Assembly: GCF_963921235.1 (NCBI RefSeq)
Contig: NC_086097.1
Coordinates: forward strand, 30,072,001 to 30,136,000
Length of the DNA stretch: 64,000 nt
Origin: Mobula hypostoma
Taxonomy: Eukaryota
Direction of reading: 5' to 3'
The notes under the pieces are model-generated. The model was given only the letters and a program-made list of their open reading frames with translations. It was not told the origin of the DNA and ran no database searches. Position numbers and translations under genes: made by a program. Position 1 is the stretch's first letter; the number at the start of each line of letters is the position of its first letter. Positions 1,898 through 61,199 of this stretch are shown in pieces.

Positions 1898-2866
1898 CAC
1901 TGTCTCTCCTTTGTCCACCCTGCTAGTTACTTCCTCGAAGAACTTCCTCCGGGACCATGCCAGAATCAAGTGATTCGTGAAAGATCATGACCAATGCATC
2001 CGTTATCTCTTCAGCAACCTTTCTCAGGACTCTGGGTTATAGTTCATCTGGCTGGAGTGACTTACCTTTCAATTTGTTTAGTACTTTTTCCTTTGTAATA
2101 GCAATGGCACTTACTCCTGCTCCTTAACACTCACAGACCTCTGGCACACTATTAGTGTCTTCCACAGGGACTATTGTTGCAAAGTACTCCTTAAGTTCAT
2201 CTGCCATTTCTTTGTCCCCCCCGCCCCATTACTACCTCACCAGCATCATTTTCTAATGGTCCAATATCAACTCTCACCTCCCTTTTGCTCTTCATTATAA
2301 CTGAAAAAACTTGTTTCCTGCTTTATACTATTGGCTAGTTTGCCTTCACATTTCATGTTTTCCCTCTTATAGCTTTTTTAGTTGCCTTTTGTTGGATTTT
2401 AAAAGCTTCCCTATCATCCAACTTCCCACTCACTTTTGCTACCTCATATGCTCTTTCCTTGGCTTTTAGCAGTCCTTAACTTCCCTTGTCAGCTATTGTT
2501 GTCTACCCCTACCATTCAAAAATTCCTGTGGGACATTTCTATTCTATGCCTTGTGAACTATTCCCAGAGACCTCAGCCATCTCTGCTCCACCATTATCCC
2601 CGCCAGTATCCTCCCCCAATCCACCCAGACAAGCTCCTCTCACATGCCTCCGTAATTCCCTTAATTCCACTGTGATACTAATACATGTGATTTATGCTTC
2701 TCACTTTGAAATTGCTGTATGAATTTAATCATGTTATGATCACTGCCTCCCAAGGGTCCTTTTTACATTAAGTTCCCTAATAAGATCTGGGTTATTACAC
2801 AAGACTCAATCGAAGATAGCCTTTCCCCGAGTAGGCTCAAGCACAAACTGCTCTAAAAAAGCCATC

Positions 2867-3028
2867 ATGAGGAAATCCGAAAATCCCTCCCCCTCCCACT
2901 TTCAAATCTCTTACTAACTCTTCTTTCAGTTAGTCCTGACGAAGGGTCTCGGCCCAAAACGTCAACTGTACCTCTTCCTAGAGATGCTTCTGGCCTGCTG
3001 CGTTCACCAGAAACTTTTATGTGTGTTG
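2867..3028 (+). mobile_element. PLE-terminus mini-insertion with decayed hammerhead (2932-2967)
   Basis: Matches the PLE 3' end at 26340-26490; GAAA changed to AAAA; imperfect TSD ctaaaaa(a)gcca(t/c)c at 2853-2866 and 3029-3041. Confidence 0.85.
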
Positions 3029-3653
3029 CTAAAAAGCCACCTCATAGGCATTCAACAAATTCCCTCTCCTGCAATCCGACACCAACCTGATTTTTCTAAT
3101 CTCCTTGCACATTGAAGTCCCCCATTACAATTGTGACACTACCCCTACTACATGCCTTTTCCAGCTCCCTTTGCTATCTCAACCCCACATCTTGGCTACT
3201 ATTTAGAGGCCTACATATGATTCCCATAATGGTTTTTTACCCTTGCAATTTCTTAACTCCACCCACAAAGATTCAACATTCTTTGACCCTATGTCACCTC
3301 TTTCTAAAGATGCAATTACACCTCTTAGCAACAGAACCATATCAATGCCCATGCCTTCCTGCCTATGGTCGATATTAGGTCTATCCTTTGATGTTAAGCT
3401 CCTATCTTCTGCCACGACTCAGTGATGCTCACGTCATACCGACCAATCTGTAACTGTGCCACAAGTTCGTTGACCTTATACCAAATGCTACGCACATTTA
3501 AATACAGCACCTTCAGTCCTACAACCTTTTGAATTTTCCCTCTGTGGTACAATTTCTTTGCTCTCTCTGCATTTGTACCTAATCATTGGCTTGTCCTTCC
3601 TTACATTCAAGTTACACCCATTATCTACTTGTAAACCTGCTGGCTCATCCTCA

Positions 3654-3845
3654 AACAACAGGAATTCTGCAGATGCTGGAAATTCAAGCAACACAGATCA
3701 AAGTTGCTGGTGAACGCAGTAGGCCAGGCAGCATCTCTAGGAAGAGGTGCAATCGACGTTTCAGGTCTCGGCCTGAAACGTTGACTGCACTTCTTCCTAG
3801 AGATGCTGCCTGGCCTGCTGCGTTCACCAGCAACTTTGATGTGTG
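3654..3845. mobile_element. Fold-back (palindromic) PLE-derived mini-element
   Basis: 74-bp inverted arms 3692-3765 and 3772-3845; exact 13-bp TSD tggctcatcctca at 3641-3653 and 3846-3858. Confidence 0.92.
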
Positions 3846-4415
3846 TGGCTCATCCTCAGCTCTGTCATACTGGTTCCCATTCCCCAGTCATGTTAGTTTA
3901 AACCACTCCCTACAGCTCTAGTAAACCTGCCCGCAAAGATATTGGTCCCCGTCAGATTCAAGTGCAACCTGTTCCTTTTATACAGGTCACACCTGCCCCA
4001 GAAGAGGTCCCAATTATCCAGAAATCTGACTCCCTGCCACCTGCTCCAATTCTTCAGGCCGAGCGGCATACTCCTGTTTGTATTTTCTTATGTTCTTGTA
4101 CTAAAGGACAATGGGACAGGGTGAGAGATGAGAGTGGAGTAATTACACAATGCAAGAGTTATTTTAGATACAAAGAGTTCATTCAAACTATATCCACATT
4201 TCTCTCCTTGAGTTCAAGTCTAACTGGTTCTTAGTGCATACGTTCTTCTGTATTTATTTATTTTCCTGTAAATACCTGCAAGAAAATGAATCCCAAAGCA
4301 GTACGTAGCAATGTATATGTAGTTTAATAATAAACTTTGACTTTGATTTCAAGTCAGTGCCTGGTCTCTCCTTTCCCTTTCTCCGCAACATCCTTAACTT
4401 CCTCAGGTTAAAGTT

Positions 4416-22170: not shown

Positions 22171-23407
22171 AGAGTAAATGCTATGTTTGGTGTAAGCCAA
22201 ACATCATACATTATCAAAATCTCACCATCCCTACTGTGAAGCATACTGGTGGCTGCATCGTGCTGTGGGAATTCTTCAGTGCAGCAGGCCCTGGAATTCT
22301 TGTGAGAGCAGAAGGTAAAATGAATGCAATAAAATACAGGAAAATCCTGGAGGAAACCCTGATGCAGTTTGCAAGAGAACCGTAACTTGGGAGAAGATTT
22401 CTTTTCCAGCAAGACAATGACCCCAAGCATAAAGCCAAAGCTACACAGGAATGGCTTACAAACAACAAAGTTAATGGATTGGCCAAGTCAGAGACCAGAC
22501 CTCAATCCAATTGAGAATTTTGTGGCTGGACTCAAAAAGGGCTGCTCACTCACGATCCCCATGCAATCCGACAGAGGCTGAGCAGCTTTGTAAAGAAGAA
22601 TGGGGGAAAAACTGCAGAGTCCAGATGTGCAAAGCTGATGGAGACCTGTCCACACAGACTCGAGGCTGTAATACTGCCAAAAGCACACCTGCTAAATACT
22701 GACTTGAAGGGGGTGAATATTTATGCAATCATTTTTTGTGCTTTATATTTGTAATTAATCTGTATCACTTTGTAGAGTTTTGTTTTCACTTTGACACAAA
22801 AGAGTGATTCTCTGTTGATCAATGTCAAAAAAATTAAATTAAATCCACTGTGATTCAATGGTGTAAAACAATATAACATGAAAACTTCCAAGGGGGGAGG
22901 GTAAATACTTTTGATACGCGCTGTATGTTTTTATATCTGTTGTCCACATGGGATAGCAAGTAAAAAATGTGTCACAGGAAGGACAGGATGGACTGAAGGT
23001 CATAAACAAGATCAGGAAACAAACTTTTCCACTCATCCTCTCTAGGGAGTGACTTTGAAGTCTTCTCACAGCTTAATGGGCAGATGACATAATATTGTAC
23101 ACATACGAGCAGAGAATTAATTTAGATTACTGTGTGTATGTCACAATATAGTTATGAAATGTGAAAGCCACTATCAATAGTTGGGACAGTAGAGGTTATA
23201 CTTTTCAAACCACTACACTGTTGTAATGTGGCATTCCTCCAGTACTTCCATTAAGAACAATCACGCCTGATGAACAGTCATTTAAATGAAGCATCTATGC
23301 CAAGTACAAGCTCTAAACGACAGAAGGGACAGCTCAACAACCGTTAACTCTATCAATGCTAACAAAAATCCCGAAGAATACTTGGGAAGGAACAAAAAAT
23401 ATATATA

Positions 23408-23603
23408 TGCTAGAGGAACTCAGCAGGTCGAGCAGAATCTGTGGGAGGGAAGGAATTGTCAATGTTTCAGGTTGAAACCCTGTACCAGAACCCAAACCGT
23501 TGACAATTTCTTATCTCCCCACAGATGCTGCTTGACCTGCTGAGTTCCTCCGGCAGGATGTCTGTTGTTACAGATACAGATATCTGCAGTCTCCTGTGTC
23601 TCC
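23408..23603. mobile_element. Older fold-back PLE-terminus mini-element
   Basis: Inverted arms gaggaactcagcaggtcgagcag... and ...ctgcttgacctgctgagttcctc; tail ...atctgcagtctcc. Confidence 0.75.
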
Positions 23604-24185: not shown

Positions 24186-24962
24186 AACAATAACGAGGTG
24201 GCCTACAGGGAAGAAGTCATCTCTCTGACACCATGGTGTCAAGAAAACAACCTCTCCCTCAATGTCGCAAAAACAAGGGAGCTGCTTGTGGATTACAGGA
24301 GGAATGGAGATGGGCTAACCCCTATTGACACCAACGGATCTGGGTTTGGGAGGGTAAACAGCTTTAAATTCCTCGGTATCTACATCACCGAGGACCTCAC
24401 GTGGTCCGTACACACCATCCATGTGGTGAAAAAGGCACAGCGGCCTCTCTTTCACCTCAGACAGTTGAGGAAGTTTGGTATGAACCCCCAAATCCTAAGA
24501 ACTTTCCACAGGGACACAATTGAGAGCATCCTGACTTGCTGCATCACTGCCTGGTATGGGAACTGTATCTCCCTTAATCACAGGACTCCGCAGAGGTACA
24601 GTTCCCATACCAGGCAGTGATGTAGCGGACAGCCCAGTGTACCTGTAGGTGTGAACTTCCCACTATTCAGGTCATTTACAAGGGCAGGTGTGCAAAAAGG
24701 GCCCGTACCCAAACCATCCCAACCACAATCTATTCCGGCTGCTACCATCCGGGAAGCCAGGACCAACAGGCTCTGGGACAGCTTCTTCTACCAAGCCATC
24801 AGACTGATGAACCCATGCTGATTTGAGTGTACTCTATATTACATTGACTGTTCTATTTATTATAAATTACTATGATTGCACATTGCACATTTAGATGGAG
24901 ACGTAACGTAAAGATGTTTACTCCTCAGGTATGTGAAGGATATAAGAAATAAAGTCAACTCA
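24186..24962 (+). mobile_element. Rex1/Babar-like LINE 3' fragment
   Basis: ORF 24198-24620 with WCQENNLSLNVAKTRELLVDYRR, FKFLGIYITEDLTW, ESILTCCITAWYG. Confidence 0.8.
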
Positions 24963-25057
24963 GTGGGAAATCATCAAATATTCCTGTTCAGGATTACTAC
25001 AGCTAAAATCCACAGTCATAGCCATGGGTACTTCAGTAAGCAACATCATTTTAAGAT

Positions 25058-26095
25058 TCCTGCACGCATGCAGAACTCGTTGACTTTATTAACTTTGCCT
25101 CCAACTTTCACCCTGCCCTCAAGTTTACTTGGTCCATTTCCAACACCTCCCTCCCCTTTCTAGATCTTTCTGTCTCTGTCTCTGGAGACAGCTTATCCAC
25201 TGATGTCTACTATAAGCCTACTGACTCTCACAGCTATCTGGACTATTCCTCTTCTCACCCTGTCTCTTGTAAAAACGCCATCCCCTTCTCGCAATTCCTC
25301 CATCTCCGCCGCATCTGCTCTCAGGATGAGGCTTTTCATTCTAGGACGAGGGAGCTGTCTTCCTTTTTTAAAGAAAGGGGCTTCCCTTCCTCCACTATCA
25401 ACTCTGCTCTTAAACGTATCTCCCCCATTTCACGTACATCTGCTCTCACTCCATCCTCCCACCACCCCACTAGGAATAGGGTTCCCCTGGTCCTCACCTA
25501 CCACCCCACCAGCCTCCGGGTCCAACATATTATTCTCCGTAACTTCCGCCACCTCCAACGGGATCCCACCACTAAGCACATCTTTCCCTCCCCGCCCCCT
25601 GCATTCCGCAGGGATCGCTCCCTACACAACTCCCTTGTCCATTCGTCCCCCCCATCCCTCCCCACTGATCTCCCTCCTGGCACTTATCCATGTAAGCGGA
25701 ACAAGTGCTACACATGCCCTTACACTTCCTCCCTTACCACCATTCAGGGCCCCAAACAGTCCTTCCAGGTGAGGCATCACTTCACCTGTGAGTCGACTGG
25801 GGTGATATACTGCGTCCGGTGCTCCCGATGTGGCCTTTTATATATTGGTGAGACCCGACGCAGACTGGGAGACCGCTTTGCTGAACATCTACGCTCTGTC
25901 CGCCAGAGAAGGCAGGATCTCCCAGTGGCCACACATTTTAATTCCACATCCCATTCCCATTCTGACATGTCTGTCCACGGCCTCCTCTACTGTGGAGATG
26001 AAGCCACACTCAGGTTGGAGGAACAACACCTTATATTCCGTCTGGGTAGCCTCAAACCTGATGGCATGAACATCGACTTCTCTAACTTCCGCTAA
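25058..26095 (+). CDS. Partial PLE ORF (RT C-terminus plus GIY-YIG endonuclease); open frame but no start codon (5'-truncated)
   Basis: Manual translation reads without a stop: NFHPALKFTW, LPFLDL, VYYKPTDSHSYL, SSHP, CKRNKCYTC, GVIYCVRCSRCGLLYIGET...GMN. Confidence 0.8.
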   Translation, partial: SCTHAELVDFINFASNFHPALKFTWSISNTSLPFLDLSVSVSGDSLSTDVYYKPTDSHSYLDYSSSHPVSCKNAIPFSQFLHLRRICSQDEAFHSRTRELSSFFKERGFPSSTINSALKRISPISRTSALTPSSHHPTRNRVPLVLTYHPTSLRVQHIILRNFRHLQRDPTTKHIFPSPPPAFRRDRSLHNSLVHSSPPSLPTDLPPGTYPCKRNKCYTCPYTSSLTTIQGPKQSFQVRHHFTCESTGVIYCVRCSRCGLLYIGETRRRLGDRFAEHLRSVRQRRQDLPVATHFNSTSHSHSDMSVHGLLYCGDEATLRLEEQHLIFRLGSLKPDGMNIDFSNFR

Positions 26096-26390
26096 GGCCC
26101 CACCTCCCCCTCATACCCCATCTGTTACTCATTTTTATGCACACATTCTTTCTCTCACTCTCCTTTTTCTCCCTCTGTCCCTCTGAATATACCTCTTGCC
26201 CATCCTCTGGGTCACCCCCCCCCTTGTCTTTCTTCCCGGACCTCCTGTCCCATGATCCTCTCGTATCCCCTTTTGCCTATCACCTGTCCAGCTCTCGGCT
26301 CTATCCCTCCCCCTCCTGTCTTCTCCTATCATTTTGCATCTCCCCCTCCCCCTCCAACTTTCAAATTCCTTACTCACTCTTCCTTCAGTT

Positions 26391-26426
26391 AGTCCTGACG
26401 AAGGGTCTCGGCCTGAAACGTCGACT
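26391..26426 (+). ncRNA. Minimal type I hammerhead ribozyme, intact core
   Basis: AGTC CTGACGA AGG GTCTCGG CCT GAAA CG TC/GACT; helix I AGTC:GACT; palindromic ACGT helix III; predicted cut after 26422. Confidence 0.85.
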
Positions 26427-28435
26427 GCACCTCTTCCTATAGATGCTGCTTGGCCTGCTGCGTTCACCAGCAACTTTGATGTATGTTGCTTGTCATTTTA
26501 AGATGTTTAACAAATCTATCAATATTCAGAATTGAAATTTCCCAGACTGCATATTCAGGCCGCAAAGGCAGTTCCTCTTTAAGAAAACGGAAATGGGGAT
26601 GTTGCGCAGGTTTACAAGTATGATTGAAATGCCAAGGCTTTAGACCCCCACTCCTGACTATCCTGCCGGCAAATGTACAGACTCTGGAAAATAAAAATGG
26701 AGAATTCAGAATAAGATTGCTGTACTAGAGGGACATCATAGACTGCTGTGTACTTTGCTTCACTGAAACATGGCTATCCCCTACCATTTTGGACATAATG
26801 CTGCAGCTCATTGGCTTCACCATTCTGCACAAAGCCAGAACAGCTCAGTCTTTTAAAGGCAGAGGAGGTGGAGAATGCTTTATGATTAACTCATCATGGT
26901 GCATAAACATGGCAGCTCTGTGTCAATCCTGCTAATCCAACCTGGAACATCTAGTGGCTGGATGTCATCCTTTTTATCTGCTGAAGAAGTTTTCTGCCAT
27001 CCTGGTAGCATTATACATTCTACCAAAGGCCAACACGAGGCAGGCAGTAGAAGAGATGATCTCTGCAATCAGCAGGCACAAAACAGCGCATGCTGATGCC
27101 TTCCTCATCATTGCGGGAGATTTCAACAACGCCAGGTTGAAGAAGTCTCTGAACAACTGCCAACATAACACCTGTGGAATCAGAGAAGCCAACACACTTG
27201 ACCACTGTTATACCACCATCAAAAACACTTTCTTTGCCATCCCACACCTACACTTCAGAAAGTCCGTTCACCTGTCTCTACTTATACTCCCAGCATTGAG
27301 GCAGAGACTAAAGACTGCAGCACCAGTGCTGAGGACCAGGTAGGTATGGTCAAGGGAGGCAGAGGAGCGCCTACAGGACTGTTTTGAGTCGGTGAATCGG
27401 ACAATATTCAGGGATTCATCTTCAAATCTAAACAAATACGCCACATTTGTCACCAACTTCATCAATACCTACGTGGATGAGTGTGTGCCTTCGAGAACAT
27501 ACTGGATATACCCAAACAAAAGCCATGGATGAACCAGGAGATTCATAGTCTGGTAAGGGCTAGATCTGTGGCATTCAAGACTAGTGATCCAGAGAAAATC
27601 AAGATGTTCAGATACAACCTAGAGAAGGCTATTTTAAGAGCAAAACAAAACAATTGCAATTGCAATTAGAGACAGAATCGAATGCACATAGGCTCTAGCA
27701 GGGTTTGCAGGTCATTACTTTCCACAAAGAGAAGCTTAACATCATGAATGGCTGTGATACTTCACTCAACACAATTATGCACACTTTGAAAGGGAGAATA
27801 AAACTAATTTGTGCGAATCCCTGGTGACTCCGTGATCTCTGTCTTGGAAACTGACACCAAACATCTTTCGAGAGGGGGAACCTCCCTGCAAGGCATCAGG
27901 CCTGATGGTGTACCTGGTAGGGCTCTGAAAACCTCTGCCGACCAATTGGCAGGAGGTTTGGGACTCCTTCAATCTCTCACTGCTGTCATCAAGAGGTTCC
28001 CACCTTCTTCAAAAGGGTGACAATTGTTCCAGTGCCCAAGAAGAACAGGATGAATTGCCTCAACGACTGTCGCCTGGTGGCACTCACATCGACAGTGATG
28101 ACGTGCTTTAAGGTGGTAGTCATGGCTAGAATAAACTCCTGCCTAAGCAGGGACCTGGACCCGCTGCAATTTACCACAATAGGTCTACAGCAGATTCAGT
28201 CTCACTGGCTCTCCACTTAGTCTTGGATCATCTAGACAATGGTAGCACCTACGTTAGGCTGCTGTTTATTTTCATTAATTACAGCTCAGCATTCAACGCA
28301 ATCATACCCTCAGTTCTAATCAACAAACTTCAAAATCTGGGCCTCTGTACGTCCCTCTGCACTGGAACCTTGATTTCCTCACCGGGAGATGAGCATCTGC
28401 GTGGTTTGAGAATAACATCGCCTCCTCATTGACAT

Positions 28436-32673: not shown

Positions 32674-33282
32674 TGAGGCGGTGTACAGGAATGAGATAGA
32701 TCAGCTAGTTGAGAGGCGTTACAACAATCTGGCATTCAATGTCAGTAAGGCCAAGAAAATGATTGTGGTCTTCAGGAAGGAGAAATCGAAAGAAAACATA
32801 GCAATCTTTTCAAGGGATCAGCAGTGGAAAGAGTGGGCAGCTGCAAGTTCCTGGGTACCGACATCTTTGTAGATCTATCCTGGATTCAGCATATTGATAC
32901 AATTTTGAAGAAGAAATGGCAGCGACTATATTTCCTAAGGAGTTTGACGAGGTTTTGGTATAACACTAAAGATTATCAAATTTCTATAAATGTACGGTGG
33001 AGAATATTCTGGCTGGTCACATTACCGTATGGTATGAAGGCACCAGTGCATAGAATCAGAAAAAAACTGCAGAGTTTTACAAAATCAGCCAGCTCCATCA
33101 GGGCACTTGCCTTCCCACACTGAGGACATCTTCAAAAGGTGATGCCTCAAGAGGGCAGCATACGTCATGAAGGATTTTCACCATTCAGAACAGGACGAGT
33201 CATTGAAAATGGAACTGAAAATCATGCAATTGTCAGAAAACATTTCCACTTCTGTCCTTATAGAAGGAAGGTCAGAGCAACA

Positions 33283-33467
33283 AACAATCTGCTGGAGGAA
33301 CTCAGCAGGTTGAGCAGCATCTGTGGGAGGAAAGGAATTGTTGACTACTTGGTTAAAAACACTGTGTCAAAACTGAGGCTGGGTTTCGACTCAAAACATA
33401 GTCAATTTCTCTCCCTCCCCTCACAACAGATGCAGCTTGACCCACTGAATTCCTCCAGCAGATTGTT
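33283..33467. mobile_element. Older fold-back PLE-terminus mini-element (23408-type family)
   Basis: Arms aacaatctgctggaggaactcag (33283-33305) and ctgaattcctccagcagattgtt (33445-33467). Confidence 0.75.
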
Positions 33468-33470
33468 ATT

Positions 33471-36809: not shown

Positions 36810-38390
36810 GCAACAGCAGTAGTCTCGTGTCTCCACAGAAGGAACGTCATTGATGAACAGTTGAAAGTGGCTGTGTAGACAGACACTGCCCTGCAGTATT
36901 GTCCAGGGGCTATGATCGTTGACCCTCACAACCATTCTCTTCTGGGCAAAGTATGACTCCAACCATGCTAGTGATTTCCCCTTGATAGACATGCACGTCA
37001 ATTTTCTCAAGGTATTTTGATGCCATGCTAGATCACATGATTCTTGGTGTCACAGGTAGTCACTTACATCTCACCTGTGGAATTAAGCCCCTGGGTCCAT
37101 ATTTGGACCAAGACAACATGGTAGTGTAGCAGTTCGCATAACACTATGACAGCACAAGCAACCTGGGCTGAATTCCTTTGCTGTTTGCATGGAGCTTTGT
37201 AAACCCGTGACCGTGCAGGTTTCCTCCTACGTTCCAAAGATGTACCAGTTAGCAGGTTAATTGGTCACGTGGGTGTAATTGGGCAGCACAAACTCATTGA
37301 GACAGAAGGGCCTATTATCACCCAGTATCTCTAAATAAAGAAAAAATAAAAGTAATGGAGTTCTAAACCCAATAGTCCTTCCAAAATCCAGACTGGAGAT
37401 CGGTGAGCAGAATTGCATTTGCCAACATGTTCTGCAAGAATTGCTGAATAGATGACCCATCTCTGCTTCCTCATGAGATTCCACCTTCATTAAAATCAGT
37501 CTTCTAATAATTTGATACTCCCTACATGATATTAAGACATGGCTGCGAGTCTTGCTTACAAGTCAATGACTGCTAATGAGTACTGCTTGATAGGTCTGTT
37601 GATGATAGCTTCCAGTCCTTTTTTGATGTTTATGAACAGTCTAATCGGGCAATAATTAGCCAGACTGGATTTGTCCTTTTAGTGCACAGTACATATCTGG
37701 GCAGATTTCCTCATTGTTGGGGAGATGCCAGGATTATAATTGTACTGCAGCAGTTACTCTAGAGTCCCCGACTAGTTCAGGAGCACAAGCCTTCAGTAAA
37801 TATTACTGCTAGAAAAGCAAGGTCTCAGCCATGTCTTCATATCACGCAGAATGCATAAAATTGTTTTAAGGCTGATTTTAGTGATGGGTCATCTATTCAG
37901 CAATTCTTGCAGAACATAATCGCAATTGTTTCAGCTATTTTGTCAGCACCCACATGCCAGTCCTCACCATTGTTCACATTCAGATTTATTTATCACCTGT
38001 ACATCAAAACATACAGTGAAATGCATCATTTGTTTTAGCAACCAATACAACCTAGCGTTGTGCTGGGGGCAACCTATACATGTCGGCACACATCCCAGCA
38101 TCAACATCGCACGTCCACAATGTTCAGCAGAACAACACAAGTAACAACAGCTGCAAAACAAGCCCCTTTGCTTCTAAACACACTGAGTGGCCTCCAACCC
38201 TCCTGATGAATGAACTTCCTCTCATTAGCTGTTTAATTATTTCCTAACTACCACCATCACCAATCCCTACCCATACACAGCCAAGTATGGTAGGACTGCA
38301 CAGCTCCAATCTGATCGATTGGTAGTAATATAATTTTTCTGTTTATAGCATGCAGCTTTTGTTGCTTACACACATGCAGACTCTACTGCA
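36810..38390 (-). mobile_element. Very old CR1-like LINE remnants
   Basis: KGKSLAWLESYFAQKRMVV; KKDKSSLANYCPI-like remnant at ~37645-37680. Confidence 0.5.
37116..37345 (+). mobile_element. tRNA-derived SINE (V-SINE/HE1-like), decayed
   Basis: tRNA-like head, ggtttcctcc...ccaaaga core, A-rich end. Confidence 0.6.
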
Positions 38391-42459: not shown

Positions 42460-44510
42460 AAAATCATAAAGAAGGAGAAGATGGAATACAAAGGTAATCT
42501 AGCCAATAATATTAAAGAGAGAACCAAAATCTCTACATATAAAATACAAATGAAAGACTAGGGTTGATATCGGACCACTAGAAAATGACGCTGGAGGGGT
42601 AGTAATGGGTTATAATGAAATAGCATACTGAATAAGTATTTTGCATCAGTCTTCACTGTGGAAGACATTAGCAACTGCTGGAAGTTTAAGAGTGTAAAAT
42701 TGCCATTACTAGAAAGAAGGTTCTTTGGAAACTGAAAATCTGAAGGTAGATAAGTTACCTGGACCAGATGGTGTACACCCCAGGGTTCTGAAAGATGTGA
42801 AGAGTTTGTGGAGGCATTACTAGTGATCTTTCAAGAAATCAATAGATTCCAGAGGAATAGAAAATTGCAAATGTCACACCACTCTTCAAGAAGGGAGAGA
42901 GGCAGAAGAAAGATAATTACAGGCCAGTTAGTCTGACCTCAATGGTCGGAAAATGTTAGAGTCAACTGTTAAGGATGCAGTTTCAGGGTACTTGGGAGAC
43001 ACATGATAAAATAGGCTATAGTCAACATGGTTTCCTTAAAAGGAAATCTTGCCTGAGAAATCTGTTGAAATTCTTTGAAGAAATATCAAGTGGGATAGAC
43101 AAACGAGAATCAGTTGATGTTGGGTAGTTGGATTTTCAGAAGGCCTTTGACAAAGTGCCACACATGAAGCTGCTTTACAAGTTAAGAGCCCATGGTATTA
43201 TAGCATTGATAGAGCATTGGATGGTTGGCAGGAAAAAAGAGAATGGTAATAAAGGGAACCTTTTCTGGTCAGCTGCCAGTGATTATTGATGTTCCACAAG
43301 GGTCTGTGTTGGGACAATTTCTTTTTACGCCATATGCAAATGATTTGGATGATGGAATTATGAGGAAATCAGCGGACGATGGAATTATGAGGAAATCTGC
43401 AGATGCTGGAATTTCAAGCAACCCACATAAAAATTGCTGGTGAACACAGCAGGCCAGGCAGCATCTACAGGAAGAAGTACAGTCGACATTTCAGGCCGAG
43501 ACCCTTCATCAGGACTAACTGAAAGAAGAGATAGTAAGAGATTTGAAAGGGATTTGAGGATGATGGAATTGATGACTTTGTGGCCAAGTTTTCAGGCGAT
43601 ACGAAGATAGTTGGAAAGGCATGTCAGTTTGAGGAAGTAGGGAGGCTAGAGAAGGACAGACAGATTAGGAGAATGGGCAAAGATGTAGTAGATGAAATAC
43701 AGTGTCAGAAAGTGTTTGGTCATGCATTTTGGTAGAAGATATAAAAGCATAGACTATTTTCTAAATGGAGAGAAAATTTAAAAATCTGAGGTAAAACGGG
43801 ATTTGGGAATCCTCATGCAGGATTCTCTAAAGGTTAATTTGCAGGTTGAGTCTGTGGTGAGGAAGGCAATTGAATGTTAGCATTCATTTTGAGAGGATTA
43901 GAATACAAAAGCAAGGATGTAATACTGAGGCTTTATAAATCACTCATTAAACCTCACCTGGAGTATAGTGAGCAGTTTTGGTTCCCCTTACCTAGGAAAG
44001 AATTATGCTGACATTGGAGAGGGTTCAAAAGAGGTTCTCAAAAATGATTCCTGGATGAACAGCTTGTCATATGAAGAGCTTTTGATGCCTCTGGGTCTCT
44101 ATTCACTGTCATTCAGAAGAATAAGGGGTGGCCTCATTGAAACCTATCAAATGTTGCAAGGCCTCAATGGAGTGGATGTGGAGATGTTTTCTATGGTGGG
44201 TGAGTCTAAGACCAGAGGACAAAGCCTCAGAATAGAAGGGCGTCCCTTTAGAACAGAGATGAGGAGGAATTTATTCAGCCAGAGAATTGCGAATCTGTGG
44301 AATTTGTCACAATTGGGGGGGGGGGAGGCTGTCATTTGGTACACTTAAGGGATAGGTTGGTAGATTCTTGTTTAGTCAGGGCATGAAAGGATACAAGGAG
44401 AAGGCAGGAGATTGGGGCTGAGAGACAAAATAGATCAACCATTATGAAATAGTGGAGCAGACTTGATGGGCCAAATAGCCTAATTCTGCTCCTATATCTT
44501 ATGGTCTTAG
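42460..44510 (+). mobile_element. Decayed CR1 ORF2 3' half
   Basis: [20 protein letters not shown] remnant, tcttatggtctta tail. Confidence 0.85.
43360..43557 (-). mobile_element. PLE-terminus mini-insertion with hammerhead (43481-43516, minus strand)
   Basis: Minus strand: AGTC CTGATGA AGG GTCTCGG CCT GAAA TG TC GACT; TSD ggatgatggaatt at 43347-43359 and 43558-43570. Confidence 0.88.
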
Positions 44511-45340: not shown

Positions 45341-46942
45341 CCTCCCACCCACAGATTAACTGCTAGTCTCCCTTCTCAGACTCTTGTCAAGTAATATGTT
45401 TTTGGACAGCAAGTATGTGTTTTTAGCAAAAAAGACAGAGGAGCAGATTGAAGGCAGATTCCAGGGTTATTGCCAAGGTGATTTAACTTCCCTAGTACTG
45501 ATTGTCACCATCTTTTTGCAAAAGGTTTAGGTGGGGCAGAATTTGTTAGTTATAATACATAGATCAACTGACTAGAGGAGAGGCCACACTGGATCTGGTA
45601 TTAAGTAATGAACCTGGTCAGGTGACAGATCTCTTGGTGGGTATTTTGGAGACACTGACTACAACTCCCTGTCTTTTACCATAGTCTTGCACAGGGATAG
45701 AAGCAGGAGGACAAGAAGTGACTTGATAAAGGTGTACAAAATAAGAGGCATGGATAGAGTTAACAGCTAGAGATATTTTCCACAGGGTGAAAATTGCTAA
45801 TGTGATTTTTTAAAACAGAGTGGTAGGTGCATGGAATGCACTGCAGGGGGTGGTAGGAAAGGCATAAATATTTGGGACATTTAAGAAACTCTTAGATAGG
45901 CACATGGGTGATACAAAAATCTACGGCTATATGGGAGGGAAGGGATTGATTGATCTTGGACTAGGTTAAAAGCAGCACAATATCGTGAGCCAAAGGGACT
46001 GTACTGTGCTGCACTGTTCCATGTTCTATGGAAGAGAAGTTCAATGGGAAATGAAGGGCATGATTACCCTGCACCTTCCACTATTTCGGGATGGCCTAAA
46101 GTGCGTCACAGTGCAAAGTAGGAACCCAGGAGTGAAATTACACACATTATAACTACAGAGAATAGAAGACTCTGCGTAGTATATCACAGGCAAATCGCTT
46201 CTCACCATCAGTAGTATCTACAGGAGGTGCTACTTAAGAAGGCAATGTTCAATATCAAAGAAATCCACCATCTGGACCATGCCATCGAACAGAAGCCTAA
46301 AGTCTTACACCACCAGGTTCGGGAACACCTACTTCCCTTCAACCATTCAGTTCCTGAACCAGCTGGTCCAACCTTTATCACTACAGTTTAGAAACTATGT
46401 AACCACTTTAATTATTTTGAACTGAAATGGACTTTGCTTTTGTTTTGTTCTACTTGTATTGGTATTGGTATTATTATCACATGTACCAAGATACAGTGAA
46501 AAGCTTGTCCTGCATACTGTTCATACAGGTCACATCATTACATAAACATTTTATACAGCACATTTCACTGTCATGTTTCGATTAGATAAATAATCTGAAT
46601 CAGAATCTGATAGTGCATTGAGGTAAACTAACAGCAATGCAGAATGAAGTGTAAAAGCTGCAGAGAAAGCACAGTGCACGTAAACAATACGGTGCAAGGT
46701 CATAATAAGGAAGATTGTGAGGTCAAGAGTCCATTCTGAGTCTGATAACAGCAAGAAAGAAGTTGTATTTGAACCTGCTTTTGTATCTTCTGCCTGATGG
46801 GAGAGGGAGTAAAGAAAATGTCCGGATGGGTAGCTTATTTAATTATGCTGGCTGCTTTACTGAGGCAGCAAGAAGTATCAACAGAGTCCATGAAGATAAG
46901 GCTCTAGGTTCTTTCTAGTAAAAATGGTGTATAATTTATGTT

Positions 46943-47160
46943 ACACACATCAAAGTTGCTGGTGAACGCAGCAGGCCAGGCAGCGTCTCTAGGAAGAGGT
47001 ACAGTCGACGTTTCAGGCCGAGACTGAGTCCTGACGAAGGGTCTCGGCCTGAAACGTCGACTGTACCTCTTCCTAGAGACGCTGCCTGGCTTGCTGCGTT
47101 CACCAGCAATTTTGATGAGTGTTGCTTGAATTTCCAGCATCTGCAGAATTCCTGTTGTTT
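46943..47160 (+). mobile_element. Fold-back PLE-derived mini-element containing an intact hammerhead
   Basis: 82-bp arms 46943-47024 and 47041-47122; TSD gtataatttatgtt at 46929-46942 and 47163-47176. Confidence 0.93.
47027..47062 (+). ncRNA. Minimal type I hammerhead ribozyme, intact core
   Basis: AGTC CTGACGA AGG GTCTCGG CCT GAAA CG TC/GACT, identical to 26391-26426. Confidence 0.8.
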
Positions 47161-47454
47161 GCGTATAATTTATGTTTATGGTTTCCTTGTGAGTGCAGTT
47201 TATCTGATGCTATGTGCCTGTGATGCTGCTGCAAGTAAGTTTATCACTATACCCGGGCACACATGGACTTGCGCAGATGACAATAAGATCCGCTAAGCTC
47301 CCACAAGTTATCCACATAATCATCCCAAGGACTCTCTGCCTTACTTATAAACAGACCATGTGATATTTGACATCCACCTTTGAGTGCAGAAAGGAACACG
47401 GTTTAATGTCTCAACTGTAATACTTCCTGGCAATGTGATGGACCCAAAGAGATT

Positions 47455-47592
47455 CCGGAGCAACACAGACAGGTCAGGCAGCATCCATGGGGAGGAATGG
47501 GACTGTTGAAGTGTCTCAGCCCAAAACATCAACTGTTTCTCTCCATAGATGTTGCCTCACCTGCTGAGTTTCTCCAGCACTTTGTGTGTTGT
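47455..47592. mobile_element. Degenerate fold-back PLE-terminus remnant
   Basis: caggtcaggcagcatccatggggag pairs with ctctccatagatgttgcctcacctg. Confidence 0.6.
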
Positions 47593-48092
47593 GTTGCCCA
47601 GTGATGAACCTCTTGTTAAACCAGATGCTTGGTAGGATAGAAATTTCAGCAAAACAAACTGTAAAAGGTAAATCTAATGGTAGAATTGAAATCTAATACA
47701 GATGACTGGATGGTAAATTGATTACAACAATAACAGAGCAAAGACTAAAAATATAATCTTGCCTTCTCTGATAGAGAATGCTATGTCAAAGCAGTATTTC
47801 AAAGACGCTGCACGGATTGTCAGCATTAAGTTTGTGCTCCAACAGACCAGGGTAGGCAAAGTCAGGGAACGGATAACAGTGTGACTGGTAGGCAGCAGGC
47901 AGATCAGGGGTAGAAGGCTGCTGCTCAGAATGGTCAGAGGAGAAATAGGTCCCATAAGAGCAGAATTAGGCCATTTAGCCCATTGAGGCTGCTCCACCAC
48001 TTCATCATGATTAATCCTTTTTCCCTCTCAGCCCCAATCTCCTGCCTTCTCCTTGTATCCCTTCATGCGCTGACCAATCAAGAATCTAAATA

Positions 48093-48311
48093 CAAACAAC
48101 AGGAATTCTGCTGATGCTGGAAATTCAAGCAACACACATAAAAGTTGCTGGTGAATGCAGCAGGCCAGGCAGCATCTCTAGGAAGAGGTGCAGTCGACGT
48201 TTCAGGCCGACACAGTCCTGACGAAGGGTCTCGGCCTGAAACATCGACTGCACCTCTTCCTAGAGATGCTGCCTGGCCTGCTGCGTTCACCAGCAACTTT
48301 TATGTGTGTTG
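48093..48311. mobile_element. Fold-back PLE-derived mini-element with hammerhead (48214-48249; ACGT changed to ACAT)
   Basis: 85-bp arms 48129-48213 and 48228-48312; TSD caagaatctaaata at 48079-48092 and 48312-48325. Confidence 0.93.
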
Positions 48312-48344
48312 CAAGAATCTAAATATGTGTCTTTAAATATTCTA

Positions 48345-51300: not shown

Positions 51301-54288
51301 ACAGTCCTGACAAAGGGTTCTGGCCCGAAACATCGACTCATCGTTTCCACGGATGCTGCCCGACCTGCTGAGTTCCTCCAGCGTGTTGTGAGTGTTGCTT
51401 TGACCCCAGCATCTGCAGATTATTTTGTGTTTAAAGCATGGATTGATACCTGGAAGTATGGTGTGGTAGCTATTAGTGAAACATGGTTGCAGGAGGGGTG
51501 TGATTGGCAACTAAATATTCCTGGATTTCAGTGCTTCAGGTGTGATAGAATTGGAGGGACAAGAGGGGGAGGTGTTGCATTGCTTGTCAGAGAAAATATT
51601 TTAGCAGTGCTCTGGCAGGACAGATTAGAGGGCTCATCTAGGGAGGCTATTTGGGTGGAAATGAGGAATGGGAAAGGTGTAGTAACACTTATAGGGGTGT
51701 ATTATAGACCACCTAATGGGGAGCGAGAAGTGGAAGAGCAAATTTGTAAGGAGATAGCAGATACTTGTAGTAAGCACAAGGTTGTCATTGTGGGGGATTC
51801 TAATTTTCCACACATAGACTGGGAAGCCCATACTGTAAAAGGGCTGGATAGTTTGGAGTTTGTAAAATGTGTGCAGGTTAGTTTTTCGCAGCAATACATA
51901 GAGGTACCAACTAGAGAAGGGGCAGTGTTGGATCTCCTGTTAGGGAATGAGATAGGTCAGGTGACGGAGGTATGTGTTGGGGAGCACTTTGGGTCCAGTG
52001 ATCACAATGCTGTTAGTTTCAACATAATAATGGAGAAGGATAGGTCTGGACCCAGGATTGATATTTTTGATTGGAGAAAAGCTAACTCTGAGGAGATGTG
52101 AAAGGATTTAGAAGGACTGGATTCAGACAAATTGTTTTATGGGAAGGATGTAATAGAGAAATGGAGGTCATTTAAAGGTGAAATTTTGAGGGTACAGAAT
52201 CTTTATGTTCCTGTTAGGTTGAAAGGAAAGGTTAAAAGTTTGAGAGAGCCATGGTTTTCAAGGGATATTGGAAACTTGGTTCAGAAAAAGAGAGATATCT
52301 ACAATAAATATAGGCAACATGGAGTAAATGAGGTGTTCGAGGAATATAAAGAATGTAAAAAGAATCTTAAGAAAGAAATTAGAAAAGCTAAAAGAAGATA
52401 CAAGGTTGCTTTGGCAAGTAAGGTGAAAATAAATCCAAAGGGTTTCTGCAGTTATATTAATAGCGAAAGGATAGTGAGGGATAAAATTGATCCTTTAGAG
52501 AATCAGAGTGGACAGCTATGTGTGGAACCAAAAGAAATGGGGGAGATTTTGAACAATTTCTTTTCTTCGGTATTCACTAAGGAGAAGGATATTGAATTGT
52601 GTAAGGTAAGGGAAACAGGTAGGGAAGTTATGGAAACTATGATGATTAAAGAAGAGGAAGTACTGGTGCTTTTAAGGAATATAAAAGTGGATAAGTCTCC
52701 GGGTCCTGACAGGATATTCCCCAGGACCTTGAGGGAAGTTAGTGTAGAAATAGCAGGGGCTCTGACAGAAATATTTCAAATGTCATTAGAAACAGGGATG
52801 GTGCCGGAGGATTGGCGCATTACTCATGTTGTTCCATTGTTTAAAAAAGGTTCTAAGAGTAAACCCAGCAACTATCGGCCTGTGAGTTTGACGTCAGTGG
52901 TGGGTAAATTGACGAAAAGTATTCTTAGAGATGGTATATATAATTAACTGGATAGACAGGGTCTGATTAGGAACAGTCAACATGGATTTGTGTGTGGAAG
53001 GTCATGTATGACAAATCTTACTGAATTTTTTGAAAAGGTTACTAGGAAAGTTGACGAGGCAAAGCGGTGGATGTTGTCTATATGGACTTCCGTAAGGCCT
53101 TTGACAAGGTTCCACACGGAAGGTTAGTTAGGAAGGTTCAATCGTTAGGTATTAATATTGAAGTAGTAAAATGGATTCAGCAGTGGCTGGATGGGAGACA
53201 CTAGAGAGTAGTGGTGGATAACTGTGTGTCAGATTGGAGGCCGGTGACTAGTGGTGTGCCTCAGGGGTCTGTACTGGGTCCAATGTTGTTTGTCATATAT
53301 ATTAATGATCTGGATGATGGGGTGGTAAACTGGATTAGTAAGTATGCAGATGGTACTAAGAAAGGTGGCTTGTGGATAATGAAGCAGGTTTTCAAAGCTT
53401 GCAGAGAGATTTAGGCCAGTTAGAAGAGTGGGCTGAAAGATGACAGATGGAGTATAATGCTGATAAATGTGAGGTACTACATTTTGGTAGGACTAAACAA
53501 AATAGGACATACATGGTAAATGGTAGGGTATTGAAGGATGCAGTAGAACAGAGGGATCTAGGAATAATGGTGCATAGTTCCCTGAAGCTGGAATCTCATG
53601 TGGATAGGGTGGTGAAGAAAGCTTTTGGTATGCTGGCCTTTATAAATCAGAGCATTGAGTATAGGAGTTGGGATGTAATGTTAAAATTGTACAAGGCATT
53701 GGTAAGGCCAAATTTGGAATATTGTGTACAGTTCTGGTCACCGAATTATAGGAAAGATGTCAACAAAATAGAGAGAGTACAGAGAAGATTTACTAGAATG
53801 TTTCCTGGATTTCAGCACCTAAGTTACAGAGAAAGGTTGAACAAGTTAGGTCTTTATTCTTTGGAGCGTAGAAGGTTGAGGGGGGACTTGATAGAGGTGT
53901 TTAAAATTATCAGGGGGATAGATAGAGTTGACGTGGATATGCTTTTTCCATTGAGAGTAGGGGAGATTCAAACAAGAGGACATGAGTTGAGAGTTAGGGG
54001 CAAAAGTTTAGGGGTAACATGAGGGGGAACTTCTTTACTCAGAGAGTGGTAGCTGTGTGGAACGAGCTTCCAGCAGAAGTGGTAGAGGCAGGTTCGATAT
54101 GGTCATTTAAAGTAAAATTGGATAGCTATATGGACAGGAAGGAAATGGAGGGTTATGGGCTGTGGGCTGTATGCGGGTCAGTGGGACTAGGTAAGAGTAA
54201 GCATTCGGCACGGGGTAGAAGGGCCAAGATGGCCTGCTTCCATGCTGTAATTGTTATATTGTTATATGGTTATTATATGGTTATAGGT
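48345..54288 (+). mobile_element. Near full-length CR1 LINE interrupted by a PLE
   Basis: 5' UTR; ORF1 from 48593 (CSVCSMWE, VHVGTND); ORF2 [22 protein letters not shown]; (GTTATATG)-type tail. Confidence 0.93.
49695..51430 (+). mobile_element. Penelope-like element (RT core through GIY-YIG), frameshifted; decayed hammerhead at 51303-51338
   Basis: DVQSLYTSIPH, QTKGVAIG, YTDD, GVIYCIRC...YIGET; exact 13-bp TSD ttaaagcatggat at 49682-49694 and 51431-51443. Confidence 0.95.
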
Positions 54289-59739: not shown

Positions 59740-61199
59740 CTCATTAATATAGATTGTATGTGGTTTGAGGCCATCATAGCACTGATCCTTGGGGAACCTC
59801 ACTAGTTACTGACTGCTCAATATCAGTATGTTATCCCAAGTCTACTCCCTCTTTGTACTTTACCCTTTATACTGGTACCTTGTGGAATGCCTTTGGAAAC
59901 ACAACTGCACTAATCTACTGAATTCCTATACCATGTTTGTTTGTATCATCTTCAAGGAACTTTAGTCAGTTTGTCTAACATGATTTCTCCTTCATAAACT
60001 CCAGCAGGTACATCCTTCGATATGGGGTCCAAAAGTGCAGTCTGACCAATCCTTTATGCCTTATAAAGCCTCAGCATTACACTCTTTCTTTTTTATTGCA
60101 TTCCTCTTGAAATGAATGCTAACATTGCATTTGCCTTCCTTACTACTGACTCAACCTGCAAGTTAATCTTTTGCGAATCCTACATTAGGATTCCCTAGTC
60201 CCTTTGCTTGAGCCACTTCAAAACTTTCCTCTCGAAACTGACTCAACCTGCAAGTTAATCTTTAGGGAGTCCTACAATAGGATTCACTGATCCCATTGCA
60301 CATCTGATTTCTGAATTTACTCCCCGTTTAGAAAATAGTTTAAGCCTTTATTCCTTCTACCAAAGTTCATAAAACCATAAGATATAGGAGCAGAATTAGG
60401 ACATTTGGCCCATCAAATCTGCTCCGCATTTTCATCATGGCTGATCCAATTTTCTTCTCAGCCCCAATCTCCTAGCTTCTCCCCATATCCCTCCATGCTC
60501 TGACCAATCAAGAATCTATCAATTTATGCATAAAATATACATAAAGAGTTGGTCTCCACAGCTGCCTGTGGCAACACATTCCACAGATTCACCACTTTCT
60601 GGCTAAAGAGATTCCTCCTCATCTCCATTCTAAAAAGCCCACCCCTCTATTCTGAGGATGTGTCCTTTAGTCTTAGACTCTCCCAATATAGGAAAGATCC
60701 TCTCCACATCCACTCTATCAAGGACTTTCACTATTCGATAGGTTTCAATGAGGTCACCCCTCATTCTTCTGAATTCTAGCGAATTAACACTCTTCATACA
60801 ACAAGCCATTCAATTCTGGAAGCATTTTCATGAACCTCCTTTGAACCCTCTCCAGTTTCAGCACATCCTCTCTAAGATAAGGTGCCCAAAACTGCTCACA
60901 ATACTCCAAGTAAAGCCTCACCAGAGCTTTATAAAGTATCAACATTATATCCTCGCTTTTATAATCTCTTCCTCTTCAAATGAATGCTTACTTCGCATTT
61001 GACTTCCTTACTACAGACTCAAAATGCTAATTTACCTTCAGGGAATCCTGCACCAGGACTCCCGAGTCCCTTTGCATCTGAGATTTTTTGTATTTTTTTC
61101 TCCATTTAGAAAATAGTCAACCCTTTTATTTTTTCTACCCCCGTGCATGACCATACACTTCCTGACACTGTATTCCATCTGCCATGTCCTTGCCCATTC
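59740..61199 (-). mobile_element. Two adjacent decayed CR1 fragments
   Basis: EWARTWQMEYSVRKCMVMH; 3' tail ccataagatatagg at ~60375. Confidence 0.8.

Follow-up and report, generated by a model that had tools for sequence, protein, structure and literature searches.

The 247-base segment at 48079..48325 of the window (the whole stretch of 64,000 nucleotides that was analysed) is a hairpin-shaped insert, here called copy A, built of two arms of the 3' end of a Penelope-like element (PLE). Copy A is a real and independent two-armed insertion of a PLE; its architecture is ordinary for these elements and follows a layout that has already been described. We consider it probable, as one joint reading, that copy A is a dead, doubly truncated insertion produced by twin target-primed reverse transcription of an endonuclease-bearing PLE. 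In the window, a preferred turn zone within a hammerhead motif is supported, whereas a fixed single turn point is not.

Structure of copy A and identity of the element

Element positions are counted from +1, assigned to the initial C of the hammerhead core, and zero is skipped; AGTC occupies -4..-1, its helix I partner +29..+32, and the predicted cut falls after +28. The inverted arms of copy A, at 48123-48213 and 48228-48318, are 91 nt long and 95% identical, a match that reaches into the flanks, and direct alignment of the arms gives 82/86 identical positions. They are separated by 14 nt (48214-48227). The preliminary description had reported a fold-back with a 14-bp TSD, and indeed the AT-rich left TSD (48079..48092, forward strand) is repeated exactly as the right TSD (48312..48325, forward strand). 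The recipient is an older LINE fragment on the forward strand (47954..48078), which resumes past 48325. Since the flanks with a single TSD copy align gap-free to a paralogous LINE copy at 60480-60580, copy A is a true single insertion. The window as a whole is dense in decayed LINEs, which belong to several families and include RT and endonuclease frames, and a strong strand-wise GC skew tracks these decayed LINEs.

The left arm (48093..48213, reverse strand) comprises the PLE 3' end from +131 to +11 and includes the tail. It is secure from +14 and, with a mismatch at +13, its inner end may lie anywhere from +11 to +14. This end had been placed in the loop of stem II; it falls instead, within the same uncertainty, in the 5' strand of stem II at +11. 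The right arm (48214..48311, forward strand) is tail-less, extends to +94 and begins at -4 with AGTC, the first strand of helix I, as had been stated. The unpaired spacer (48214..48227, forward strand) is the native segment -4..+10, present in the right arm only. Also as first described, the 37-nt tail (+95..+131; 48093..48129, reverse strand) belongs to the left arm only, opposite to copy B at 46929, which carries it on the right arm; 34 of the 35 bases compared between the two tails are equal.

Copy A itself has no ORF, and the matches that identify its parent come from longer, decayed, 5'-truncated ORFs in the window. In longer window copies the same terminal repeat follows RT motifs (RVT_1, E 4.6e-5), and a GIY-YIG region is joined to it (E 9e-4 and 2e-4); these matches lie below the Pfam gathering scores because the longer PLE copies are decayed. 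From these sequences we read the arms as the 3' end of an endonuclease-bearing PLE in which a predicted RT and C-terminal GIY-YIG are linked to the terminal repeat. Our reference copy (25058..26492, forward strand) is a 5'-truncated PLE of the parent type with the GIY-YIG region, the pyrimidine-rich terminal repeat, a tail-less end and a 12-bp TSD; no full-length PLE copy was seen in the 64-kb window. Next to the left TSD of this copy, on its outer side, eight bases (25038-25045) are the reverse complement of the tail-less end, by chance or through target homology. The PLE 3' ends of the window copies cluster at +91..+98 or +126..+132, and the two ends in copy A are 37 nt apart, in keeping with the optional tail of 30-40 bp at one end. 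Copy A also holds an inverted, 5'-truncated copy head to head inside one TSD, and head-to-head inverted truncated PLE copies with such a one-end tail inside a TSD are published (PMC3846280 and PMC8557442, in the parts covered).

The PLE end carries a minimal hammerhead motif, as had been proposed, whose core and helices can be read from the letters. The core CUGANGA / GAAA / NUH, helix I, stem II and a palindromic ACGU in place of helix III were all found, the core being read from the copies at 26391 and 47027. In copy A the putative type-I motif lies at 48214..48249 on the forward strand, read against the covered parts of PMC4209133, and includes both helix I strands (-4..-1 and +29..+32), the core and stem II; the substitution G26>A in the right arm breaks the ACGU palindrome. 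Rfam gave no match at gathering score for the motif. For stem II we prefer the register G9-Y20, G10-C19, G11-C18 and T12-G17, which places +11 in the 5' strand, because +20 is often C and a spare base stands before the G-C closing pair (PMC4209133, as far as covered); +20 is C in 19-76% of the summed contig depth of four read runs, and this T/C variation fits G9-Y20. Both helices are predicted to form in an isolated 48-nt junction piece. At 26376-26406 and 43502-43530 a hairpin is predicted (about 0.9) in which the upstream pyrimidine tract pairs with the hammerhead core, and in unprocessed RNA such a hairpin would hold the ribozyme inactive.

Two-armed insertions and their turn zone

A profile search of the 64-kb window recovered 18 arms, as six head-to-head pairs and six apparent singles. 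Inspection of TSDs moved one single, copy H, to the two-armed class, and the final census is of 12 insertions of the PLE end, seven two-armed and five one-armed; the fold-back that had been counted as the second is one of these seven. The profile search missed the micro-arm of copy H, and detection favours long second arms. No inverted tail piece was found at the four other one-armed 5' junctions inspected, the LINE-interrupted copy at 51303 being left out.

The junction of copy A has its upstream end at -4 and its downstream end at +11/+14. Copy B (46929..47176) has the junction (-4,+11) plus 2 nt, a tail on the right arm, which is the one starting at -4, and a 14-bp TSD, and copy C (3641..3858), of the same young subfamily, has the junction (+10,+18) with 2-nt microhomology, a tail on the left and a 13-bp TSD; the TSDs of A (14 bp), B and C are all exact. 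An older subfamily is represented by copy D (23405..23600; junction about (+1 or -3, +16), tail on the right) and copy F (33266..33468; a partial tail on the left and a 4-nt overlap at a junction of about (-4 to -6, +1)), whereas copy G (47450..47598; junction about (+1..+7, +24..+29), 6/7 overlap) is old and decayed; inspection found no clean TSD for D, F and G. Copy H (2852..3041) consists of a tail-less arm from -51 and, just inside the left TSD, an inverted 11-nt micro-arm that matches the tail end (+116..+126) at 11/11 positions, and its junction (-51,+116) lies outside the hammerhead. The one-armed copies extend upstream to -45, -112, -781, -1337 and -1617.

Three further structures were observed in the window. 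A PLE end at 43347-43570 (reverse strand) has the last ~14 nt of its tail and a 13-bp TSD word twice in tandem, as from abortive priming followed by re-priming. A fold-back at 24538-24626, with arms of about 33 nt (80% over 90 nt), sits in a different LINE-like repeat that has no PLE end. A 49-nt inverted repeat, 90% identical (37416-37464 and 37880-37928; outer span about 510 bp), is a possible non-autonomous DNA transposon.

Six of the seven two-armed insertions turn within -6..+29, while the five one-armed copies all end elsewhere (Fisher p=0.015). The uniform spread of breakpoints that the preliminary description had set against its own proposal was therefore not seen in the window. The same test gave p=0.002 before copy H was counted, and this copy also overturned two earlier formulations of ours, that no arm ever passes -4 and that 12 of 12 ends lie in the zone. 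Under uniform and microhomology-weighted nulls, in which pairs lie <=40 nt apart and end by +60 (a class that leaves out H), six of six in the zone has p between 2.5e-8 and 1.4e-3. The recurring breakpoint claimed at first stands as a zone but not as a single point, since the six in-zone copies have five different junctions; when six events were simulated inside the zone, an exact coincidence appeared by chance in 2% and a coincidence within 1 nt in 15%. With seven events in one window, we regard it as a modest lead that junctions cluster in this zone. A turn at the ribozyme cleavage site was rejected, as only copy G turns near it. Moreover, 11 of the 12 long arms extend upstream of the cut site (+28/+29), which argues that cleavage does not set the turn and that the template was uncleaved, as in the covered parts of PMC11167929.

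Copies A and B had been given essentially the same turn point. Their two inner ends are indeed the same, but copy B has two extra bases (TG). The word GTC at -3..-1 recurs at +11..+13 as native direct repeats, and, if the extra bases are included, the left arm of B can be read as native AGTC followed directly by +14. Because a loss of 13 nt between the GTC repeats would lead twice to the same turn point, the turn shared by A and B can be explained, post hoc and from matches of 3-4 nt, by a putative 13-nt loss in one arm of near-perfect palindromes centred on -4/-5.

The density of the family would give a genome-wide map of junctions great power. Four read runs yielded 41,000-180,000 contigs per run on the un-inverted copy at 25850-26500, where contig depth per bin was not taken as copy number. 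Fifteen of the 339 joints there were listed, all of the 'skips' kind; a few backward joints without a stated kind were set aside. Loose ends occurred at 26391 in all four runs with a pyrimidine-rich consensus (agreement 0.39-0.45); judged by this consensus to be mostly from other subfamilies, they were left uncounted as fold-backs. Pattern scans of public contigs gave 0 hits, and a degenerate 22-mer gave 2 and 7 hits, in microbial contigs only, which we took as chance. No RNA dataset with the element was among the matches listed.

Origin of the arms and of the turn zone

Twin priming, already suggested in the preliminary description, is the mechanism that fits best, and copy A excludes a simple snap-back of one cDNA. 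Of the two-armed copies, the six that can be scored all combine a tailed arm with a tail-less one (6/6, p=0.016 under free choice per arm; G is not scorable). The tailed arm has its junction further downstream than its partner in A, C and D, so that neither arm was copied from the other; snap-back of one first-strand cDNA was rejected for these three copies, as it could add neither the tail nor the spacer. Copy H has a second cDNA that stopped after about 11 nt, and its inverted micro-arm inside the TSD points to two independent primers. A tail on the shorter-reaching arm, as in copy A, and the micro-arm of copy H separate twin priming from snap-back, and the one-sided tails, the arm offsets and copy H together fit two primers, one per nicked strand and start site. 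The stops of tailed and tail-less arms (means +7.4 and +3.8; n=5 each) are not 37 nt apart (Mann-Whitney p=0.012). Since the two kinds of arm start 37 nt apart but stop together, position, not length, sets the stop. The case for twin priming comes from seven events in one window, with the junctions of D, F and G uncertain by several bases.

In the proposed series of steps, the GIY-YIG nuclease would nick both target strands 14 bp apart, a distance read from the TSD, and each nicked 3' end would prime one cDNA on the same source RNA, one starting at the tail site (about +131) and the other at the tail-less site (about +94). Both cDNAs would stop early, after 80-135 nt, and their far ends would be joined head to head by repair, either blunt or via 2-7 nt of homology. 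Either primer could yield the longer arm, which would put the tail on either side. Arm pairs in which both arms are of recognisable length end in a 35-nt zone over the uncleaved hammerhead motif, and the upstream edge of this zone is AG/TC (-4 to -6). With a strong stop or an RNA boundary at -4, both cDNAs would reach AGTC and give a near-perfect palindrome; in A and B one arm would then lose 13 nt between direct repeats, whether through a jump of the RT or through deletion afterwards.

Arkhipova et al. (2013; PMC3846280, in the parts covered) explained palindromic head-to-head junctions of PLEs by self-priming on an antisense transcript; the resulting hairpin would be an intermediate which is integrated and then cut back by the nuclease. 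We find this improbable for copy A. Self-priming yields identical arms and may leave the tail on either side, and the centre of copy B is a small palindrome; however, it leaves copy H, with an 11-nt and a 145-nt arm, unexplained, it has to account for five different junctions, and later work has traced the tail to two sites on sense RNA at which RT starts (PMC11167929, covered parts).

Copies A and B also appear to be separate events. As first described, the variants shared by the arms of copy A differ from those of the 46929 copy, at three sites (+34, +50 and +84) where two had been named. The arms of one insertion agree at these sites in 3/3 young copies (A, B and C), and the three copies represent three different haplotypes; these haplotypes and the tails on opposite arms support, as far as the bases tell, the earlier view that A arose independently of B. 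The change at +34 is family-wide (37% and 52% of summed contig depth in two runs). In a 75-nt comparison, from which the 2932 row was excluded as out of register after +55, the left arm of B differs from its partner at 3 positions and from each A arm at 4, and the right arm of C differs from its partner at 5 and from each A arm at 4; since the latter is nearer to A than to its partner, overall distance alone fails to group arms by insertion. That A and B inherited their junction from one palindromic master copy of a non-autonomous family, as their same two junction ends and similar size and TSD length might suggest, is very improbable, because it requires both arms to have changed in concert at three sites, the tail to have swapped arms and the junction to have changed by 2 nt, and copy C of the same subfamily has the third haplotype and a different junction. 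Thus, instead of the one junction and one lineage of a MITE-like master, which had been named at the outset as the alternative, the three young copies gave three haplotypes, two junction types and a tail on either arm.

Three causes of the turn zone were weighed, which may act together; the remaining probability goes to small-sample chance or other causes. We tentatively rank first, as a possibility, that AG/TC is an RNA boundary (a start at A-4 or a 3' splice site) or a strong stop at -4, where cDNAs started within the first repeat unit would run off or stall. No in-zone long arm extends beyond -6, and arms of A, B and F extend as far as -3 to -6, as does one of D if a mismatch is allowed. 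A tract of 73-90% pyrimidine plus YAG stands upstream of the site in 6/6 native copies, and a word like the initiator consensus (YYANWYY), with A at -4, in 5/6. Cap copying can leave an extra 5' G, and copy B carries one extra G directly 5' of AGTC. In D. virilis the 5' end of helix I coincides with the end of an intron (PMC4209133, covered parts), but the start lies 46 nt before a 75-nt intron, away from helix I (PMC2377424, covered parts). In addition, the upstream 331 nt hold 6 initiator-like words and 2 tracts with YAG, the junctions have no common exon-1 sequence, and none of the five one-armed copies ends at -4, although a true RNA 5' end should yield some.

Second in our order, and likewise doubtful, is that the letters alone make the zone, so that cDNA ends anneal, or a palindrome loses its centre, at short inverted or direct matches. 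Unstable palindromes may lose their centre at a later stage; a literature search on palindrome central deletions returned nothing. A pause may also come from a competing hairpin, in which -19..-7 pairs with +1..+12 around the loop -6..-1; it is predicted at about 0.9 in two of the three young native copies, and the two ends seen in A and B coincide with its base (+11/+12) and its loop. Inverted 3-nt matches number 1.88 per position in +1..+33, against 0.09-0.91 upstream of -33, being scarce in the upstream pyrimidine tract and densest around the motif. The overlaps of 2 nt (C), 4 nt (F) and 6/7 nt (G) agree with such annealing, and A and B fit direct-repeat loss. Yet, for the class of pairs defined above, which leaves out H, microhomology weighting puts just 10-33% of possible junctions in the zone (6/6: p 1e-6 to 1.4e-3), and A and B are without inverted microhomology to the native upstream bases.

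We consider it unlikely, and less probable than the two causes above, that the hammerhead fold, as a monomer, protein-assisted or as an ACGT-paired dimer, stalls both RTs and gathers the cDNA ends, a cause compatible with twin priming. It would account for six of seven two-armed junctions falling within -6..+29, for helix I beginning at -4, and for the 2-nt overlap at junction C being exactly the stem II pairs G10-C19 and G11-C18; according to the parts covered, minimal hammerheads are proposed to work as dimers (PMC4209133), and the anole ribozyme is protein-assisted with a cleavage dispensable for insertion (PMC11167929), which leaves room for a structural role. Against it, RNAfold gives helix I at 0.00-0.01 in 6/6 native contexts and stem II at >0.5 in 1/6; these are predictions for protein-free monomers of a motif reported to need a partner or protein, so they are not decisive against the fold. 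The six in-zone copies have five different junctions, the motif was read through in all five one-armed copies and in copy H, a stem gives inverted microhomology by its sequence even when unfolded, and the D. virilis inverted repeats differ in size between copies (PMC2377424, Fig. 1C legend, in the part covered). In a more specific form, to which we give still less weight, the uncut hammerhead would be a structural stop and pairing site, with two motifs or one protein-bound fold holding the RT centres of a dimeric enzyme, such that both cDNAs would halt at helix I or stem II and join. If this were true, the ribozyme, whose cleavage insertion can spare, would have a function, and genomic fold-back junctions would be a footprint of an RNA fold.

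Comparison with known systems

In L1 twin priming, each of two target ends primes a cDNA, and the two cDNAs are joined inside a single TSD, often at a microhomology; the products invert a non-overlapping upstream part. Copy A differs in that both cDNAs would copy the same 3' segment, which gives a palindrome.

The window copies are of the same kind as the pseudo-LTR insertions of endonuclease-positive PLEs (Schostak et al., 2008, PMC2377424; Arkhipova et al., 2013, PMC3846280; Craig et al., 2021, PMC8557442), with which, in the parts covered, they share head-to-head repeats, a tail at one end, a TSD, a near-palindromic junction and heavy 5' truncation. They differ from them in that both arms consist of 55-135 nt of the terminal repeat, with no ORF between, and in having TSDs of 13-14 bp as compared with 8-10 bp in rotifer PLE insertions. 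The formation of PLE inverted junctions is termed undefined in PMC8557442, and the covered parts of these three papers hold no mapping of junctions onto the ribozyme; nor do those of PMC12910113 and bioRxiv 10.64898/2026.07.22.740005 hold anything on junctions. A search that lay outside most subscription literature turned up no study that places the inversion junctions of PLEs on the ribozyme.

With the minimal hammerheads that Cervera and De la Pena (2014, PMC4209133, parts covered) describe in metazoan PLEs, the present motif shares the type-I form without a helix III loop, the palindromic 15.2-16.2 and an extra base before stem II. Pairs of minimal hammerheads on opposite strands, 100-700 bp apart, are described there; unlike these pairs, copy A carries the motif only in part on one of its arms, and the motif is known here from its sequence. 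The closest experimental counterpart is the Anolis Poseidon element (PAc) studied in vitro by Frangieh et al. (2024, PMC11167929), in which cutting and extension take place on both target strands, the tail is delimited by two RT start sites, the RNA serves as substrate in uncleaved form and its cleavage is not needed for insertion. In its covered parts that paper is without head-to-head products or their junctions, and the word 'inverted' occurs once, for a blocking nucleotide. PAc and the window copies are alike in their two tail-bounding 3' ends, their AT-rich target and an RNA template that is uncleaved.
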